Positions 15,594 through 44,711 of a DNA stretch of 44,711 nucleotides are shown one piece after another. This DNA comes from a virus. Made by a program: the position numbers and the translations under genes. Where the stretch lies: the IMG/VR virus record IMGVR_UViG_3300044453_000072; one strand, given 5' to 3'. How positions within the stretch are numbered: position 1 is the first letter of the stretch; each line of letters starts with the position of its first letter. The notes under the pieces were generated by a model, which searched no databases, was not told the origin of the DNA, and was given only the letters and a program-made list of their open reading frames with translations.

Positions 15594-16646
15594 CTATCCC
15601 CGCGTTACACTTTGCATTCTGCGCCCGGCAGATTCGGCCAGGCTCCGGCGATTTGCCGATTGTACGTAGGGCCGAGCCTCTTTCGCGTCTTTCCAGCCGA
15701 ACCACGCCGTCAGCTCGTATTCGGTCGCCCCGCCTTCGGCCATCTTGGTAGCGCGCCATTTCCGAACGCTATGTGCCGTGATGCCCTCGACGCCAGCTTG
15801 CCGGAACCACTTGGCGATGCGCTGCGATAGAGCCTTGTCGCTGGCGAAGGCTCTCCCCCAATCATTGGTGAGGAACACCAGCCCGTTCGTCTGCTCGATT
15901 ACGGCCCGCGCCTCCGGCGAGATGGTCAACTCGCACAGGACGCCGGTCTTAACCGTCTTGAAGCACAGAAGCCCGCTACGCACGTGCTGAGGCCCGAGAA
16001 TGCGCAGATCCGATACGCGCATCCCGAAGGCCTTCAGGAGCGTCATAGCGCGCCGTGCGGGGCCGCTGGTGTGGAAAGCCTCATATTGGGCGATATGCTC
16101 GTCAGTGGCAGTCTCATGGCCTTCTGTGGCGGCGTTCAGGCGCTTCACGTCCCGAACCGGGTTGTCGGCCCTCAGATCGTTGTCGAATGCGAAGGCGAAT
16201 ATCTGCGAGAGCACCTTCAGGCGCTCGTTCGCCGCGTGGGGGTTCGTCGCCTTCCGATTGCGCAGAATCGCGATATGCCGCGCCTCGATCTTCTCGAAAC
16301 GCTCCATGCCGAACGTCTCGGGGAAGCGCGGGTCAAGCGGCTCCGCCATCATGGTCAAGATGATCCTGCGCCGCGCCGAGCGTGTCGCTTCGGCCTTTAG
16401 CTTGAAGCCGGGGCTGTCCATGTACCTGTCGGCCAACCATGCGAGCGTGCCTTCGCTATTGATTGCAGCGGGCGCTTGCCAGGTCAAATGACGCTGGTAC
16501 ACTGCCATGAATTCGGGCGTCGTCGGGTCGCTCGGCAGTTCGCCAAGGGGCTGCCCGCGCCGCCGAAAATAGTAGCGGTACGATCCATCCTTGTTCCGCC
16601 GGACGGTGACATGCTTGAGGCGAAGGCGCATGATTGGAGCGTTCAC
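15594..16646 (-). CDS. int: Tyrosine recombinase / phage integrase (350 aa)
   Basis: The catalytic-domain signature is ...GMRVSDL...HSVRKWRAT...RPYVQ (R, H-x-x-R, Y). The N-terminal LRLKHVTVRRNKDGSYRYYFRRRG is typical of proteobacterial phage integrases. Confidence 0.9.
   Translation of the reverse strand: MNAPIMRLRLKHVTVRRNKDGSYRYYFRRRGQPLGELPSDPTTPEFMAVYQRHLTWQAPAAINSEGTLAWLADRYMDSPGFKLKAEATRSARRRIILTMMAEPLDPRFPETFGMERFEKIEARHIAILRNRKATNPHAANERLKVLSQIFAFAFDNDLRADNPVRDVKRLNAATEGHETATDEHIAQYEAFHTSGPARRAMTLLKAFGMRVSDLRILGPQHVRSGLLCFKTVKTGVLCELTISPEARAVIEQTNGLVFLTNDWGRAFASDKALSQRIAKWFRQAGVEGITAHSVRKWRATKMAEGGATEYELTAWFGWKDAKEARPYVQSANRRSLAESAGRRMQSVTRG
15601..15610 (-). promoter_or_regulatory. 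Partial fourth copy of the motif (GTGTAACGCG) inside the 3' end of int
   Basis: The minus-strand reading is AAAGTGTAACGCGGGGATAG, which spans the integrase stop codon. Confidence 0.4.
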
Positions 16647-18567: not shown

Positions 18568-18778
18568 GGTCGGGGCTCTCAATTTCTTCGAGGGTGCAGT
18601 TGTCTGCGCCGTAAATTTCGAAGAACGCTTCCGCCAATGATGAAATGCAGACCAAGCCGCCAACGTCCGGGTCGGCACGATGCTTCCCGTCCAAGGCGCA
18701 ATCGGCGTCAATCTTCCGGTCAAAAATGACGCCCTCGGTTTTGTTTTCGTTCCATGCGATATAGCGCTTGGCCATCAT
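18560..18778 (-). CDS. Hypothetical protein (72 aa)
   Basis: ORF overlapping the stop of the HNH gene by 4 nt. Confidence 0.55.
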   Translation of the reverse strand: MMAKRYIAWNENKTEGVIFDRKIDADCALDGKHRADPDVGGLVCISSLAEAFFEIYGADNCTLEEIESPDHA

Positions 18779-19206
18779 TCTATCTCCTGTATTGCGGTGC
18801 CAAAGAGCCTCTTGGGAGGAAGGCTTGGTTTCGATGATGCCCGCTGCTCTCGACGGGCTGATTTGGACGATCTGGTCGTAAAGCCACGAGACTGCATCTT
18901 GGGAGGATCGATGATGCGAAGGTGTTTCTTGCGGACGGCGGCGACCTTGGACTTTTCAGCCTTCGCCTCGCGGGTGTGTCCGGCATGGCATTTGATGTGA
19001 GCCGGGAAAATCTTGCTCTCGCGGTTCTCGCCCCCGTTGATAAGCGCGGGGTCGTGATTGGCTTCCCATTTCTCGCCAGCCTGGATTGGCAGTTCGCACA
19101 GGTGACAGACGCCATTCTCACGCTCCCAGATGCGCAAGCGGACGCGAGGCGGTATCTTGCTGTCTGGTGTCTTACCTATCCACTCGGAGACGGTGCGCCC
19201 GGTCAT
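18775..19206 (-). CDS. HNH endonuclease (143 aa)
   Basis: The HNH/zinc signature is CHLCELPI...WEANHDPALINGGENRESKIFPAHIKCH. The C-terminal tail is basic. Confidence 0.8.
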   Translation of the reverse strand: MTGRTVSEWIGKTPDSKIPPRVRLRIWERENGVCHLCELPIQAGEKWEANHDPALINGGENRESKIFPAHIKCHAGHTREAKAEKSKVAAVRKKHLRIIDPPKMQSRGFTTRSSKSARREQRASSKPSLPPKRLFGTAIQEIE

Positions 19207-19532
19207 GCCAATAGCGCCTTTCGGGCCATCTTGAGTTGCTTGCCCTTAGGGCGGCGTTCGCGTAAGATTTCGGCGCGTTCACATACAAACGACAGCCCCG
19301 GCATATGACAATCGGGGTCAGGTATCAGGTCGCCAACGGGCTTGACTTCATAGACGGTTCCGTTGCCATGACTGGCGGCATACAGAACGGCGGCCGCATA
19401 TTCGGTAGTGACGCAGACCTTTGAAATGTCGCAAGCGCGAGGGTCGATTTCCGCAGCGAACGAACGCTGTCCTGTTTCTTTCGCAGGTAGGATAGTCCTT
19501 AGGCCGCGTGGCCCGCCATGATAATACGCCAT
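19203..19532 (-). CDS. Arr-like (rifampin ADP-ribosyltransferase-fold) small protein (109 aa)
   Basis: MAYYHGGPRGL..ILP...KVCVTTEYAAAVLYAA..GNGTVYEVKPVGDLIPDPD...PG.SFVC aligns motif by motif with recalled Arr sequences (YHGT.., IYIT..AA.WGA, G.I.IVEP.G...DDPN, PGN..SYR). Confidence 0.5.
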   Translation of the reverse strand: MAYYHGGPRGLRTILPAKETGQRSFAAEIDPRACDISKVCVTTEYAAAVLYAASHGNGTVYEVKPVGDLIPDPDCHMPGLSFVCERAEILRERRPKGKQLKMARKALLA

Positions 19533-19777
19533 CACCAGCTTTCCTCTACCCGTTCCCTGTCCACCCTGTCTGGAAACACCCTCGCAAGGTCTGCATGAAC
19601 CAGGTCCTGCTTTGCCTTGATGATCGCTGCGGAGCCTCGCTTGTGAGACTTCCGGCATTGTCTTAACCGCCGGTCCAGATCAGCCATCTGCGGATCGATC
19701 CCACACATGGCCTTGCGTGATCGCCAATTCGCCCATTGCAGGATTGCTCTGCGGGAAAGGATCAGGAAGCGGCTCAT
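19532..19777 (-). CDS. Hypothetical basic protein (81 aa)
   Basis: ORF in the operon. Its stop shares one base with the next start (TGATG). Confidence 0.5.
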   Translation of the reverse strand: MSRFLILSRRAILQWANWRSRKAMCGIDPQMADLDRRLRQCRKSHKRGSAAIIKAKQDLVHADLARVFPDRVDRERVEESW

Positions 19778-19795: not shown

Positions 19796-20137
19796 TTAGG
19801 CGACCTTGGCCATGGCCCGGAAATTGCTCTGTACAGTCCGCCAGGCTTCGATGATCGCCTCGCACTTCGACCGCTGGTTTCGGTATTCCTCATCGGCCTC
19901 TACAGCCGCATAGAAACGTTCGCAGGCTTGCCGGTAGTTCTCGTCCAGCACCGACTTCGCATCGCGCTCTGCAACGCTTCCTTCGGCTGACAGAAAGGCT
20001 CTTGCCTTCGCTGCCCGGCGTTCATCTTCCCGGCGTTCTCGCATTGCCCTTGCGGCTGCCGCTGGCTGCGCATGGCCTTCCAGCATGTCGAAGGCGGCAT
20101 GGACCGTCTCGTCTTTGATCGTGAAGCGCGGGGTCAA
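19796..20137 (-). CDS. Hypothetical coiled-coil protein (113 aa)
   Basis: Charged helical sequence overlapping the upstream stop by 4 nt. Confidence 0.55.
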   Translation of the reverse strand: MTPRFTIKDETVHAAFDMLEGHAQPAAAARAMRERREDERRAAKARAFLSAEGSVAERDAKSVLDENYRQACERFYAAVEADEEYRNQRSKCEAIIEAWRTVQSNFRAMAKVA

Positions 20138-20400
20138 AACGGTATGGTCCCGTTGTCGAGGTCGCGGGCGTCATCCCCGTAACTGGTGCGCGGGTCGTCG
20201 CGGTCGTGACGTTGCTGTGCGTCCTTGCGCTTGAAGGCGAGGGACTGGAATCGTCCCTTCCGGCCATCCTTGGTCCAAGCCGAGACGTAGTATTCAACGC
20301 CGTCGATTATGGCCGTCCCGGTGGCGTGGGGATGGGTGTCCTTTTCGCGCCGTTCGTTCTTGAACAGTGCGCCGGAATTGTCTTTCGGTTCGAATGCCAT
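20134..20400 (-). CDS. Mini single-stranded-DNA-binding-like protein with acidic ..DLDNGTIPF tail (88 aa)
   Basis: AGGAGA lies 6 nt upstream of ATG 20400. It sits directly downstream of ERF. The C-terminal IPF tip resembles the bacterial SSB C-terminus. Confidence 0.6.
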   Translation of the reverse strand: MAFEPKDNSGALFKNERREKDTHPHATGTAIIDGVEYYVSAWTKDGRKGRFQSLAFKRKDAQQRHDRDDPRTSYGDDARDLDNGTIPF

Positions 20401-20410
20401 CGTGGTTCTC

Positions 20411-21118
20411 CTAGCCTGCCATGATCGGGTATTGTGAAAGGTCGCTGCCGTTTGCCTCCTTGGCGTCACGGTCGGCCATCTGTTTCAGTTCCTTTTCGGC
20501 CTTCTCGAATTCCTCTGCGGCGGCATCGCACCAAGCCGGGGGCCACTTGTCGGTGGCGGCTTTCTTCGACCATGCCTGCCGGACGGACTGGAGCTTTACG
20601 GTCGTGCCGCACTCGTTGATTTCCCGCTTCATTTCCTCGAATACGCCATCGCGCTTTAGCTGCGCGCTGGACGTGCGCTTGGTCGGTTCCGCGCCGCCAT
20701 CATGGGCGCTGGCAACCTCCGGGTCGTCGCCGGTTTCGATCTGGAACAGCTTGAACAGTACGTATTTATTCGCGCCGGTAATGGCCTTGTAGACGCCCTT
20801 GTCGCCAACGGAACCATTCTTGGCCCGGTCATTGCCCATGCCAGCCGCGCCGATCTTCTCGGGCCAGACATCGCCGTCCTTGTGCATGAGGGTGTATTCC
20901 ATCTGCACCGTGACGTTGCCGTGGTCATCTACCGGCGTGACGGCCTTGACGGACGGAATGAGAAGCAGCCCGGCTTCGAGCATTGCGGGGCGTAGCTTGT
21001 CGAGCAGATCGGCCTCGCCTGCATACCTGTATCCGTGGAATGCGTTCTTGCCGGTTTTCTGCACGTAGCCGACTTTCGACATGACTTCGTGCAGTGCTTT
21101 TGCTATGGTTGCGGACAT
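20411..21118 (-). CDS. erf: ERF-family single-strand annealing protein (235 aa)
   Basis: The N-terminal signature is ...VMSKVGYVQKTGKNAFHGYRYAGEADLLDKLRPAMLEAGL... Confidence 0.85.
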   Translation of the reverse strand: MSATIAKALHEVMSKVGYVQKTGKNAFHGYRYAGEADLLDKLRPAMLEAGLLLIPSVKAVTPVDDHGNVTVQMEYTLMHKDGDVWPEKIGAAGMGNDRAKNGSVGDKGVYKAITGANKYVLFKLFQIETGDDPEVASAHDGGAEPTKRTSSAQLKRDGVFEEMKREINECGTTVKLQSVRQAWSKKAATDKWPPAWCDAAAEEFEKAEKELKQMADRDAKEANGSDLSQYPIMAG

Positions 21119-22668: not shown

Positions 22669-23550
22669 TCAGGCGGCAGGAACCAGTTTCCCGTCACGCG
22701 CGATGTACGGTGTATTCGGGAGCAGCCCGTCCTTGCCGATGCAGCCGGTAGCGAAACCGACGCACTTGCCGTCCTTGAACTCGGCTACGGAAATCCAAGT
22801 GCCATCGGCACCGGAAACGGACGTGCCGGGACCGGCAGAGGCCACGACGCTGTGGGCACCTTCAGCTACGATCTGCGCGTAGTTGCCGCTGGAACCGATC
22901 CGCGCGGAGTCGCCGCTGGAACCGATCCGCGCGTAGTTGCCGCTGGAACCGATCTGCGCGTAGTTGCCGCTGGAACCGATCCGCGCGGAGTCGCCGCTGG
23001 AACCGATCCGCGCGTAGTTGCCGCTGGAACCGATCTGCGCGGAGTCGCCGCTGGAACCGATCCGCGCGGAGTCGCCGCTGGAACCGATCCGCGCGTAGTT
23101 GCCGCTGGAACCGATCTGCGCGTAGTTGCCGCTGGAACCGATCCGCGCGTAGTCGCCGCTGGGGTCATCGCCCTTGCCCTTCGTGGCGTCGATCACCCAC
23201 GACACGGCGCGGCGGATAAAATCCGGTAGGCTGATTTCGGCGTCTATGGTAATCTTGGCGGCGCAAATCTTGCTGTCTTTCTGGCCGCTGTCGCGAACGA
23301 AACCAGCCATCGAAACATCGGCGTAGCGCGCCAGCTTGCCCTCGGCATCAACCGGCCCGTAATAGCCCCACACGTCGAAGGGCGAACCCTCGCAGGCATG
23401 GAAGCCGGACGAGCACATGACGACACCGCCCTGGTGCTCGTAGCTCTTGCCGACTTCGTACTGAAAGCCTCGGCATTTCAGGTCGGCGTCAAAGCCCTTG
23501 ATGGCCTTCACGGTTTCAGGCTGCTTCGATTTCGCGGGCTTCTTCGCCAT
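22669..23550 (-). CDS. Tandem nonapeptide-repeat protein (293 aa): conserved Cys/His N-domain plus about 11 x SG(N/D)(Y/S)A(R/Q)IGS
   Basis: The N-terminal KGFDADLKCRGFQYEVGKSYEH...CSSGFHACEGSPFDVWGYYGP is a widespread phage domain (recalled). The central repeats are encoded by the 27-bp tandem array. Confidence 0.8.
   Translation of the reverse strand: MAKKPAKSKQPETVKAIKGFDADLKCRGFQYEVGKSYEHQGGVVMCSSGFHACEGSPFDVWGYYGPVDAEGKLARYADVSMAGFVRDSGQKDSKICAAKITIDAEISLPDFIRRAVSWVIDATKGKGDDPSGDYARIGSSGNYAQIGSSGNYARIGSSGDSARIGSSGDSAQIGSSGNYARIGSSGDSARIGSSGNYAQIGSSGNYARIGSSGDSARIGSSGNYAQIVAEGAHSVVASAGPGTSVSGADGTWISVAEFKDGKCVGFATGCIGKDGLLPNTPYIARDGKLVPAA
22870..23162. repeat. 27-bp tandem repeat, about 10.7 copies, with an 81-bp higher-order period
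   Basis: The + strand unit is GCGCG(T/G)AGT(T/C)GCCGCTGGAACCGATC(C/T), and unit boundaries fall every 27 nt from 22875. The variant order is A B A' / A B A' / B B A' / A ... Confidence 0.95.
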
Positions 23551-24602: not shown

Positions 24603-24818
24603 ATGAGACTGAATAATTTAAGCGCAAGGCTTAAGGTGAACGAGTGGTTGAAGGCGACTGGTCGCGAACCACTGCCCGCCAGCCTTTCATATGAAGAATT
24701 CGCTACCCGTTTGCGCCAGATTACTGCGCCAAATCAGCGTCAGGTGGATTTTGCCAGTCGAGTGGATGCTGTCGCCTACATTCGGCACGTTGCAACCAGT
24801 ATGGCGAAGGCTCCTTAG
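24603..24818 (+). CDS. Small hypothetical protein in the immunity region (71 aa)
   Basis: AAGGGGA RBS upstream of ATG 24603 (MRLNNLSARLKVNEWLKATG...). It is convergent with the CI-like gene and overlaps it by 4 nt. Confidence 0.4.
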   Translation: MRLNNLSARLKVNEWLKATGREPLPASLSYEEFATRLRQITAPNQRQVDFASRVDAVAYIRHVATSMAKAP

Positions 24819-25201
24819 CTATCGGTCCCGGTACGGTCTGGAAAGGCCAGCTCGATCATTTGTTTGATGCGCTCGACATCTTCAGGCGGTCGATTTTGCG
24901 TCTTTCGGGCAAACCAGTCTTGATCGGGATGGCGTGTCAAGGCTTCCGGGTCCGGTTCATCCGTCATCGGGTCGCGCAGATCGAGGGCTTCGGCAAGGCG
25001 CACCTGAGTAGGCATGTGGGGAAGTGATCCCTCAAGCCAGCGGTACACCTGTTTCTTGTCTATGAAGGTGTCCGTGTCGGCCTCATTGAGCTTCCGCCAC
25101 AGGTCCATCGGTTCCATGTCGCGCCGCTCCATCCACTCCCTGAGAAAGTGGCGGCGGAAGGACGCCTTCCTGGTCGCATGGATTCGGGACACTTGTTTCA
25201 T
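24815..25201 (-). CDS. CI-like HTH repressor candidate (128 aa)
   Basis: It is divergent from the Cro-like gene across the operator region and has an XRE-like HTH around ...IDKKQVYRWLEGS..PTQVRLAEAL. ATG 25201 abuts a half-site, so the mRNA may be leaderless. An upstream in-frame start lies at 25243. Confidence 0.6.
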   Translation of the reverse strand: MKQVSRIHATRKASFRRHFLREWMERRDMEPMDLWRKLNEADTDTFIDKKQVYRWLEGSLPHMPTQVRLAEALDLRDPMTDEPDPEALTRHPDQDWFARKTQNRPPEDVERIKQMIELAFPDRTGTDS

Positions 25202-25252
25202 GTGGCATTTTCTACCAATCCCGCATTTTCGGCGCGTCCCCAAAAAGTGACA
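25202..25252. promoter_or_regulatory. Operator half-sites GTGGCA (25202-07) and GTGACA (25247-52) in the divergent promoter region
   Basis: They use the same hexamers as the 17-bp palindromes. Confidence 0.4.
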
Positions 25253-25296: not shown

Positions 25297-25539
25297 ATGA
25301 GCGCGAAAAAGCCCCGACAGCCGATCCATCATTTTCGCAAGGCGCGCGGTCTGACGATCGATGCGCTGGCGAAGGAAATGAAGGTCAACAAGCGCACCGT
25401 CATTCGGTGGGAACATGGCGAGCCGCCGATCCCGACCGAGCGGCTCGACAAGGCAATGCGGATTCTCGACGCCAAGCGTCACGAGCTTCGCCCCGACCTC
25501 GCAGCTCTCTTTGCCGAACCCGCCGGAGCCACCCAATGA
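25297..25539 (+). CDS. Cro-like XRE-family HTH regulator (80 aa)
   Basis: The HTH is ARGLTIDALAKEMKVNKRTVIRWEHGE. It is the first gene of the rightward operon. Confidence 0.75.
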   Translation: MSAKKPRQPIHHFRKARGLTIDALAKEMKVNKRTVIRWEHGEPPIPTERLDKAMRILDAKRHELRPDLAALFAEPAGATQ

Positions 25540-43948: not shown

Positions 43949-44711
43949 TGGCTTTCAAAGACTGGAGCCTCGTCGCCGCCGACAACGACGATGCGGACGG
44001 CGATATTGCGCTCATCGGCAATTCGACCAGCATCCGCAATGCCGACAACTCGCAGCGCGCCATCATGCAGAAGGTGGCGATCTGGCGCGACGATACCAAT
44101 GGTTCGCGGTCCACCACTGGTTCATCGAACGCCTATCTGTATGCCTCGGCGGGAGCAGGAGCGACGCCGGCTGACGGCTTCGCCGTCTATGCCACTGGCG
44201 ACACGCTGACGGTTCAGGCCAATCATACCAATACGGGAGCCGCCACGCTCGATGTCGATAGTGTTGGGGCAAAGGCAATACGGAAATATTCTGCCGGTTC
44301 GGAAGCGGCGCTTGTCAGCGGCGATATCGTCTCTGCGGCGCCGTTCACCGTCATCTACGATGAAGACGCCAATTCGGCAGCGGGCGCATGGATACTCCAA
44401 AACCCGACATTCCCCGGCCTCTATGAATCGGGCACCTTCACCCCAACACTGACCTTCGGCGGTGGAAACACGGGCATGACCGGGACGTTTTCCGGCTGGT
44501 ACACGAAGATAGGCAATGTCGTCACGTTCAATATCCGAATTACCCTCACCGCCAAGGGAAGCTCTACCGGCAATGCGTCGATCAACAACCTGCCCTTCAC
44601 GTCGGCTGACGGTACTAATCAGTACCAGCCTGTGTCTATGTGGATAAACGCTATGAGCGCCGGCCTGCAATACGCTCCGATTGGGCTGATTCTATCAAAC
44701 ACAACCGCCGT
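43948..44711 (+). CDS. Tail fibre / receptor-binding protein, N-terminal part (runs off the window end and continues at 1..230; 288 aa in total)
   Basis: From ATG 43948 there is no stop before 44711. The ORF is absent from the ORF track because it is open at the window end. Confidence 0.7.
   Translation, partial: MAFKDWSLVAADNDDADGDIALIGNSTSIRNADNSQRAIMQKVAIWRDDTNGSRSTTGSSNAYLYASAGAGATPADGFAVYATGDTLTVQANHTNTGAATLDVDSVGAKAIRKYSAGSEAALVSGDIVSAAPFTVIYDEDANSAAGAWILQNPTFPGLYESGTFTPTLTFGGGNTGMTGTFSGWYTKIGNVVTFNIRITLTAKGSSTGNASINNLPFTSADGTNQYQPVSMWINAMSAGLQYAPIGLILSNTTA
44585..44711. repeat. Terminal direct repeat copy 2 (identical to 1-127)
   Basis: Base-for-base identity. The repeat lies inside an open reading frame. 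Confidence 0.95.

Follow-up and report, generated by a model that had tools for sequence, protein, structure and literature searches.

IMG/VR virus record IMGVR_UViG_3300044453_000072, analysed here over its whole stretch of 44,711 nucleotides (the window), carries on its minus strand a gene at 19203..19532 that reads from an ATG at 19532 to a TGA at 19203 and encodes a protein of 109 aa, MAYYHGGPRGLRTILPAKETGQRSFAAEIDPRACDISKVCVTTEYAAAVLYAASHGNGTVYEVKPVGDLIPDPDCHMPGLSFVCERAEILRERRPKGKQLKMARKALLA. Profile, structure and conservation analyses assign this phage gene to the Arr clade of diphtheria-toxin-like (H-Y-[E/D]) ADP-ribosyltransferases (ARTs), of which it is a minimal member. We consider it probable that its product, referred to below as the phage ART, works as an early-expressed mono-ART that depends on nicotinamide adenine dinucleotide (NAD+) and acts on an acceptor other than a rifamycin, its turnover possibly being reduced through an unusual cysteine, C40. 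The open reading frame (ORF) itself had been called in an earlier, sequence-only reading of the window, and its coordinates and length were reproduced exactly. Beyond existing annotation, the analysis adds little more than three points set out below: a map of how far the rifampin pocket has been lost, a basic helix near the C-terminus, and a natural Y-to-C variant.

A first question is how specific the kinship to Arr is. Taken alone, the phage ART matches a single Pfam model, Arr-ms (PF12120), at E 0.015 with 15.9 bits, the gathering cut-off being 25, and Arr-ms was also the top, sub-threshold Pfam match of five of the six relatives tested. Searches with the phage ART by phmmer against PDB sequences returned noise only, searches of NCBIfam and PADLOC gave no match, and a five-sequence profile found Arr in the PDB at E 0.13, ranked below repeat-driven beta-trefoil matches. 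The protein matches PHROG 17296, which is labelled as of unknown function, at E 7.2e-23, with residues 3-108 lying on profile positions 5-119 of 125. An exhaustive profile search at E<=1e-3 then recovered at least 599 clusters, each represented at 50% identity and almost all with a length of 100-150 aa, and a family profile was built from 107 aligned members of these clusters. Among PDB sequences this profile matched only two Arr proteins, Arr-ms (2HW2/9IAF, E 7.5e-8) and ARR-2 (9IBA, E 0.0066); the significant level of the Arr match is owed to the use of the 107-sequence profile. PF12120 is matched by 78 of the 107 members at E<=0.01 (best 7.6e-10), and precomputed PF12120 hits are present on some family members. 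Moreover, hhalign comparison of the phage family with four canonical Arr sequences annotated on plasmid records (M. ulcerans arr, Vibrio arr, Arr-2 and Arr-3) gave a probability of 98% and E 2e-13 over 106 columns, a span that runs from just ahead of the HG motif through the C-terminal helix. The resemblance to Arr at the family level is far above chance.

Structure prediction points the same way. An AlphaFold2 model of the phage ART, computed with the family alignment as input, has a predicted local distance difference test (pLDDT) score of 97 and a predicted template modelling (pTM) score of 0.88, and its predicted fold is the same as that of Arr (Arr-ms 2HW2/9IAF, Arr-2/Arr-3, PF12120). When this model was compared with the PDB by Foldseek, significance was reached by 2HW2 and 9IAF alone (E 2e-5, probability 1.00, template modelling (TM) score 0.62); the remaining PDB matches, among which are other ART-fold proteins such as cholera toxin A and TreTu, are non-significant at E of about 0.1-0.7. 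In a viral structure library the matches are small phage proteins, including one called 'Ms Rifampin ADP-ribosyl transferase', with phage DarT weaker at rank 12 (E 1.4e-2). Profile, profile-profile and structure comparisons therefore agree on the Arr-like ART fold that the sequence-only reading had proposed, and Arr is the sole significant PDB match. A predicted ART fold and a specific kinship to Arr are thus established as far as computation can establish them.

A residue map from the phage ART to Arr-ms was drawn from HMMER and hhalign alignments, with conservation counted over 252 relatives. The ordered set of four Arr motifs named in the sequence-only reading was recovered in full by the alignment programs: YYHGG aligns with Y-L-H19-G-T of Arr, KVCVTT..AAAVLYAA with HIY49ITQ..AAVWGA, GTVYEVKPVGDLIPDPD with GRIFIVEPEGAIEDD84PN (family-profile alignment), and PG.LSF.C with PGNPT.SYRT (hhalign). 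At the level of single residues, H5-G6-G7 corresponds to Arr-ms H19-G20-T21, V39-C40-V41-T42 to I48-Y49-I50-T51, A48 to A57, D72-P73-D74-C75 to D84-P85-N86-V87, P78-G79 to P93-G94, S81 to S99, and A103-R104-K105-A106-L107 to M126-R127-D128-G129-L130, the last being the alpha2 motif M[R/K][D/E]XL. Arr and the phage ART thus share the HG motif, the Ala at the nicotinamide floor (A57/A48), the catalytic Asp in D-P-x and the P-G...S segment, as well as two helices that include a hydrophobic-R-x-x-L pattern in alpha2. They differ in size (109 aa against 143-150 aa for Arr) and in the alpha1 motif, which is A-x-[LMI]-[YF]-A in the phage clade and A-V-W-G-A in Arr.

H5 and G7 are each invariant among the relatives (238/238 ungapped), A48, Y61 and D72 are each conserved in 250 of 252, and D74, an Asp where Arr-ms has N86, in 247 of 252. 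Position 51, which lies 11 residues past position 40, is aromatic in most relatives (Y 127, F 109, W 7), is Tyr in the phage ART, and is what we take to be the second Tyr of the Y-x10-Y pair of diphtheria toxin (DT) and PARP. From these alignments the predicted NAD+ pocket retains His5-Gly6 (the HG motif), Asp72, and Ala48 at the base of the nicotinamide site. In Arr, the equivalent of Asp72 is held to stabilise the oxocarbenium. The Ala in question, A57 of Arr, takes the place of the nicotinamide-binding Ser of PARP (bioRxiv 2025.02.20.639278).

His19, Tyr49 and Asp84 are reported to be needed for Arr-ms activity (PMC13246000, PMC6092378 and PMC8120803, citing Baysarowich 2008), and the requirement for Tyr49 is also given in bioRxiv 2025.02.20.639278. 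Two of these three residues, the equivalents of His19 and Asp84, are conserved family-wide. The third is not found in the phage ART, which carries Cys40 at the position of Tyr49. The His-Tyr-Asp set that the sequence-only reading had named for checking thus stands in the phage ART for the His and the Asp but not for the Tyr; that reading had quoted KVCVTT as the match to the IYIT segment of Arr and had overlooked that the Cys of KVCVTT stands at the Y of H-Y-D. Of the 252 relatives, 237 have Tyr in this column, 13 have Phe and 2 have Cys, the second bearer of Cys being the distant P0141, and all close relatives of the phage ART (60-64% identity) have Tyr there. The exact protein occurs on 8 contigs, for which the 6 places listed are 6 different samples, so its unusual residues, Cys40 included, are not read errors.

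Does Cys40 then mark a dead or crippled copy? One alternative explanation is that the phage ART is a pseudoenzyme with a binding-only role, sequestering NAD+ or ADP-ribose-derived molecules or binding a host factor. Its cysteine replaces a Tyr that Arr-ms reportedly needs for its activity (PMC13246000, PMC6092378), a change seen in 2 of the 252 relatives; mycobacterial Arr is reported to have non-catalytic roles; and the identity of the protein on 8 contigs indicates that it has been maintained despite the substitution. However, all other family-conserved residues (H5, G6, G7, A48, Y51, Y61, D72 and D74) are intact, the 13 relatives with Phe imply that the hydroxyl is dispensable, and Y49 is itself conserved in 87% of bona fide Arr sequences (PMC6092378). 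Moreover, Cys arose twice independently, in the phage ART (P0001) and in P0141, and Y, F and C alone occur in this column, which suggests a tolerated variant and not decay. We therefore judge a purely binding role unlikely. On the reading that we prefer, an active NAD+-dependent transferase, replacement of the nicotinamide-stacking Tyr (Arr Tyr49) by Cys40 means that turnover of the phage ART may be below that of its relatives.

What has become of the part of Arr that holds rifampin? In Arr-ms the antibiotic is contacted by one hydrophobic set (F39, M126, L130, L133, A139 and I141), by a second hydrophobic set (F9, V87, L92 and P96), by a cation-pi contact from K91 within [L/V]T[D/K]K[K/R].P, and by water-mediated contacts from S99, N86 and V140 (Shin et al., PMC6092378). 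In the hhalign alignment at least 7 of these 14 contacts (F9, K91, P96, L133, A139, V140 and I141) have no counterpart in the phage ART and F39 has no clear one. What is retained among the contacts is generic: S81, L107, and residues that are small or hydrophobic where Arr-ms has M126 and V87. The rifampin-binding beta5-beta6 loop, D72..S81, is 10 residues long in 215 of 252 relatives as compared with 16 (D84..S99) in Arr-ms, and in 199 of the 252, the phage ART included, it contains no Lys or Arg. The termini are shortened as well. The catalytic His is preceded by 4 residues (family median 7, Arr-ms 18), for which reason an equivalent of F9 is absent, and the L130 equivalent is followed by 2 (family median 6, Arr-ms 13), so that the cap formed by L133 and A139-I141 is absent too. 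The earlier suggestion that the target is unlikely to be an antibiotic fits these losses, which by comparison with the published contact list (PMC6092378) affect the rifampin-binding loop, the N-terminal Phe and the cap at the C-terminus.

These losses bear directly on a second alternative, in which the gene encodes a functional Arr-type resistance enzyme that modifies a rifamycin-like antibiotic, or another diffusible hydroxyl-bearing anti-phage metabolite, and thereby shields the RNA polymerase of the host or the development of the phage. In favor of such an enzyme, rifamycin blocks the host RNA polymerase, on which a P22-like phage would presumably rely. Sequence, profile and structure all make Arr the nearest homologue, and no small-molecule substrates of ARTs other than rifamycins are known to date, nor any other substrates of Arr (bioRxiv 2025.02.20.639278). 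For phage proteins of this kind Iyer et al. proposed host rifamycin-type resistance or the neutralising of diffusible anti-phage compounds, and this alternative is the 'straightforward interpretation' that they offered for the homologue in Sinorhizobium phage PBC5 (PMC9503650). The hydrophobic positions of alpha2 (M126 as A103, L130 as L107), S99 (S81) and P93-G94 (P78-G79) are also kept. Against this stand the missing rifampin contacts, a rifampin-binding loop that is 6 residues shorter family-wide and has lost its conserved Lys/Arg, the Cys at the Tyr49 position, and a place in an early operon, with no promoter or terminator signals of its own, from which expression in lysogens as a moron is unlikely. 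On balance we find a resistance function for this gene quite unlikely.

The C-terminal region may offer a clue to a different kind of acceptor. The alpha2 helix is present in the phage ART, the acidic position of M[R/K][D/E]XL being basic (K105), and residues 97-108 form a basic C-terminal helix. Past A87, over the last strand and this helix, the net charge in the phage family has a median of +5 and is at least +3 in 80% of members, whereas canonical Arr proteins range from -4 to +1; the acidic core of the family has a median of -3. The corresponding helix in Arr walls the acceptor cleft (PMC8120803). Judged from sequence charge only, the basic helix region would fit a negatively charged acceptor, for example a nucleic acid, a signal molecule derived from a nucleotide, or an acidic surface of a protein.

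The mechanism that we favor would therefore proceed with the phage ART being made during lytic growth or induction and not from the prophage, binding NAD+ and transferring ADP-ribose to an acceptor other than a rifamycin. The rationale for a non-rifamycin acceptor is the absence of the rifampin-binding loop with its Lys91, of Phe9 and of the C-terminal cap, together with the basic helix region. A broader hypothesis, which we advance tentatively as a serious possibility, is that the whole clade of mini-Arr phage proteins was repurposed from small-molecule modification to a new class of acceptor in infection, which might be a nucleic acid, an immune signal derived from nucleotides, or a protein of the host or of a defence system, with the basic helix replacing the rifampin cap in substrate recognition.

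Several points weigh against this interpretation. The phage ART as a single sequence falls under the Pfam gathering score for PF12120, and its Cys40 in place of Tyr49 is shared with one relative among the 252. Arr makes no direct hydrogen bonds to rifampin and has broad specificity (PMC8120803), so a reshaped pocket might still accept hydrophobic small molecules. The HMMER and hhalign alignments disagree over the beta2-beta3 loop that in Arr bears the SN[Y/F] motif, which lies at the NAD+ entrance and whose F39 also touches rifampin (PMC6092378); the phage ART has no S-N-aromatic sequence, and at position 28, where 60 of 105 family members have Y or F, it has Glu. Finally, the literature searched gave no experimental work on NAD+ binding, activity or target for any member of the phage clade.

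The genomic setting of the gene is informative with respect to when the protein would be made. An exact 127-bp direct repeat at the ends of the window, 1-127 and 44585-44711, marks it as a circularly closed, complete phage genome of ~44.6 kb with a GC content of 59%, and a 44,645-bp version of the phage genome is present in a second sample. The genome encodes a P22-type portal, a large terminase and a major capsid protein. From ~24100 a leftward array of genes runs to a tyrosine integrase (15594..16646, minus strand, PF00589) at its distal end, by way of a DUF7666 repeat protein, an Erf-like annealing protein (20411..21118, minus strand, PF04404 ERF), a single-stranded DNA-binding protein (SSB; 20134..20469, minus strand), the phage ART and an HNH endonuclease, with Erf and SSB forming a recombination module. 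Such a layout is the 'early-left' arrangement of lambda and P22. Together with the integrase, a cI/cro-like divergent pair of helix-turn-helix-like ORFs, read by eye at 24815-25243 (minus strand) and 25297-25539 (plus strand), indicates that the phage is temperate. The gene had been placed in a 'lytic' early operon; with an integrase, a cI/cro-like switch, erf and ssb present, it belongs instead to the delayed-early leftward operon of a temperate P22-like phage and not to a strictly lytic one. A megablast search of phage genomes with the 9-kb region around the gene gave no match.

Within this operon the gene overlaps both of its neighbors. Upstream lies a basic 81-aa ORF to which no function was assigned (19532..19777, minus strand), whose stop shares one base with the ATG of the ART gene (TGATG); downstream, the stop of the ART gene overlaps the ATG of the HNH endonuclease gene (ATGA), which occupies 18775..19206 on the minus strand and directly adjoins it, as the sequence-only reading had said. 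The HNH product matches PHROG 333 at E 9e-12, and no Pfam model matched it at E<=0.01. The longest possible ORF around the ART gene reaches further 5', to 19658. The 109-aa start is credible because of the TGATG overlap, the spacing of a Shine-Dalgarno-like GAGGA element, read from the sequence at 19542..19546 on the minus strand (9 nt 5' of the ATG and inside the 81-aa ORF), the N-termini of homologues, which begin at the same place, and independent gene calls on metagenome contigs, which give the same 109-aa product. Within the leftward early operon the gene is coupled translationally. On the minus strand no site resembling a promoter or a terminator flanks it, and this, with the overlap on both sides, means that the phage ART is most likely produced along with the recombination genes, in lytic growth or upon induction. 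Such predicted expression argues against a resistance gene of lysogenic conversion. The GC content at third codon positions of the ART gene is 0.56, well under the 0.76-0.78 of erf and int, with 0.66-0.67 in its two immediate neighbors; this fits a mobile accessory gene and suggests that the ART gene was acquired more recently.

The close overlap with the 81-aa ORF also raises the question of whether the two genes form a pair. In this third alternative the phage ART would act as the toxin in a toxin-antitoxin or abortive-infection pair built on an ART, comparable to DarT-DarG, ParT-ParS or RES-Xre, with the 81-aa ORF as its partner, and the phage DarT among the weaker structural matches would lend it some support. 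The 81-aa ORF was, however, not found beside ART homologues at 13 other loci, where neighbors vary, and neither it nor the other neighbors match a macrodomain, Xre or an antitoxin in Pfam or PHROG. No antitoxin- or reversal-enzyme-like genes were seen next to the phage ART, and the PADLOC models gave no match. We consider a toxin-antitoxin role highly improbable, and the preferred reading remains that of a transferase acting during infection.

Homologues of the phage ART are found in other phages. The gp52 product of Sinorhizobium phage PBC5 shows 45% identity across 96% of the protein, and Streptomyces phage TurkishDelight gp70, annotated 'ADP-ribosyltransferase' (SEA-PHAGES), is 40% identical; one relative from a JGI metagenome bears the name 'rifampin ADP-ribosylating transferase'. 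PBC5 gp52, TurkishDelight gp70 and PHROG 17296 are direct and similarly small homologues. These phage relatives carry Tyr (or Phe) where the phage ART has Cys, and their host range differs from that of its metagenomic P22-like phage. The PBC5 and TurkishDelight homologues lie in arrays of small co-directional phage genes, as do, in comparable small-gene arrays, those on seven IMG/VR contigs and those on metagenome contigs that bear terminase, P22-portal and capsid genes. A homologue on a Streptomyces chromosome likewise sits in a small co-directional gene array that is prophage-like, and all homologue contexts examined were phage- or prophage-like. The immediate neighbors differ among loci; the sole loci that resemble the window are viral contig L013, which has the order ART-HNH-integrase, and L014, which has ART-integrase. 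Pfam searches for fused domains in ten longer family members or ORFs gave only sub-threshold Arr-ms and two weak zinc-ribbon-type matches, and no clue to a target.

The existence of such proteins was already on record, and the novelty ascribed to the gene at first had been overrated. Iyer, Burroughs, Anantharaman and Aravind (Viruses 2022, PMC9503650) described ARTs of the rifampin-ART family from Sinorhizobium phage PBC5 as well as from phages of Microbacterium and Gordonia. The phage ART is a further member of this published kind of Arr-family protein, which is itself uncharacterised experimentally. Its differences from Arr are those of a distinct sub-clade: it is without the F9-bearing N-terminus, K91/P96 and the C-terminal cap, its loop is 6 residues shorter, the C-terminal region of its clade is basic (median +5) where that of Arr is acidic, it has Asp (D74) for Arr N86 and Cys40 for Arr Tyr49, and it is phage-encoded in an early operon, whereas the Arr gene is a chromosomal or integron resistance determinant.

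A functional analogy can be drawn with AcrIF11, T4 Alt, ModA and ModB, and DarT, which are small phage NAD+-dependent transferases made in infection; no significant sequence or structure match of the phage ART to AcrIF11, Alt, ModA/ModB or DarT was found. T4 ModB belongs to the R-S-E clade. T4 Alt and ModA are of that clade as well (PMC8120803).

Why would a minimal Arr of this kind matter? The relatives make up a large phage-restricted Arr sub-clade in which the NAD+ site is mostly preserved (His, Gly, Ala and Asp) and the rifampin pocket is gone. If the clade is active on another acceptor, it would uncover a new ADP-ribosylation target in phage-host conflict, for instance in host take-over or anti-defence, and if the proposed repurposing is true, the Arr clade would extend beyond rifamycins, its sole established substrates. 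Resistome pipelines would then also need to be wary of labelling such phage genes as rifampicin-resistance determinants, as the rifampin names already borne by the JGI relative and by the phage protein in the viral structure library illustrate. The value of the gene in the window is that of a well-defined and readily testable example with a natural Tyr-to-Cys variant of the triad.

Further observations concern the family and its surroundings. Cys75 and Cys84 flank the shortened beta5-beta6 loop, each being present in 195 of 252 relatives and both in 157 of 252, and canonical Arr proteins are without them; as a covarying pair they are not informative, with 157 co-occurrences observed and ~151 expected. 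The homologue is split into two overlapping ORF pieces at two loci, one in an Actinomycetes metagenome-assembled genome (L011:4929-5334) and one in an IMG/VR contig (L019:900-1379), and these may be frameshifts, pseudogenes or assembly errors. At three unrelated phage loci a DUF5131 (PF07505) gene lies 1-4 kb from the ART homologue (L001:6545-7558, which is PBC5 gp55; L024:4599-5594; L025:4229-5101). In the window itself, the DUF7666 repeat protein of the leftward array (22669..23550, minus strand, 293 aa; N-terminal PF24703, E 5e-29) belongs to a family whose members are among the weak Foldseek matches of the phage ART model (probability 0.98-0.99, E ~2e-2); hhalign showed no sequence relationship. 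Its DUF7666 domain is followed by about ten 9-residue repeats of the form 'SSGNYA[RQ]IG / SSGDSA[RQ]IG'.

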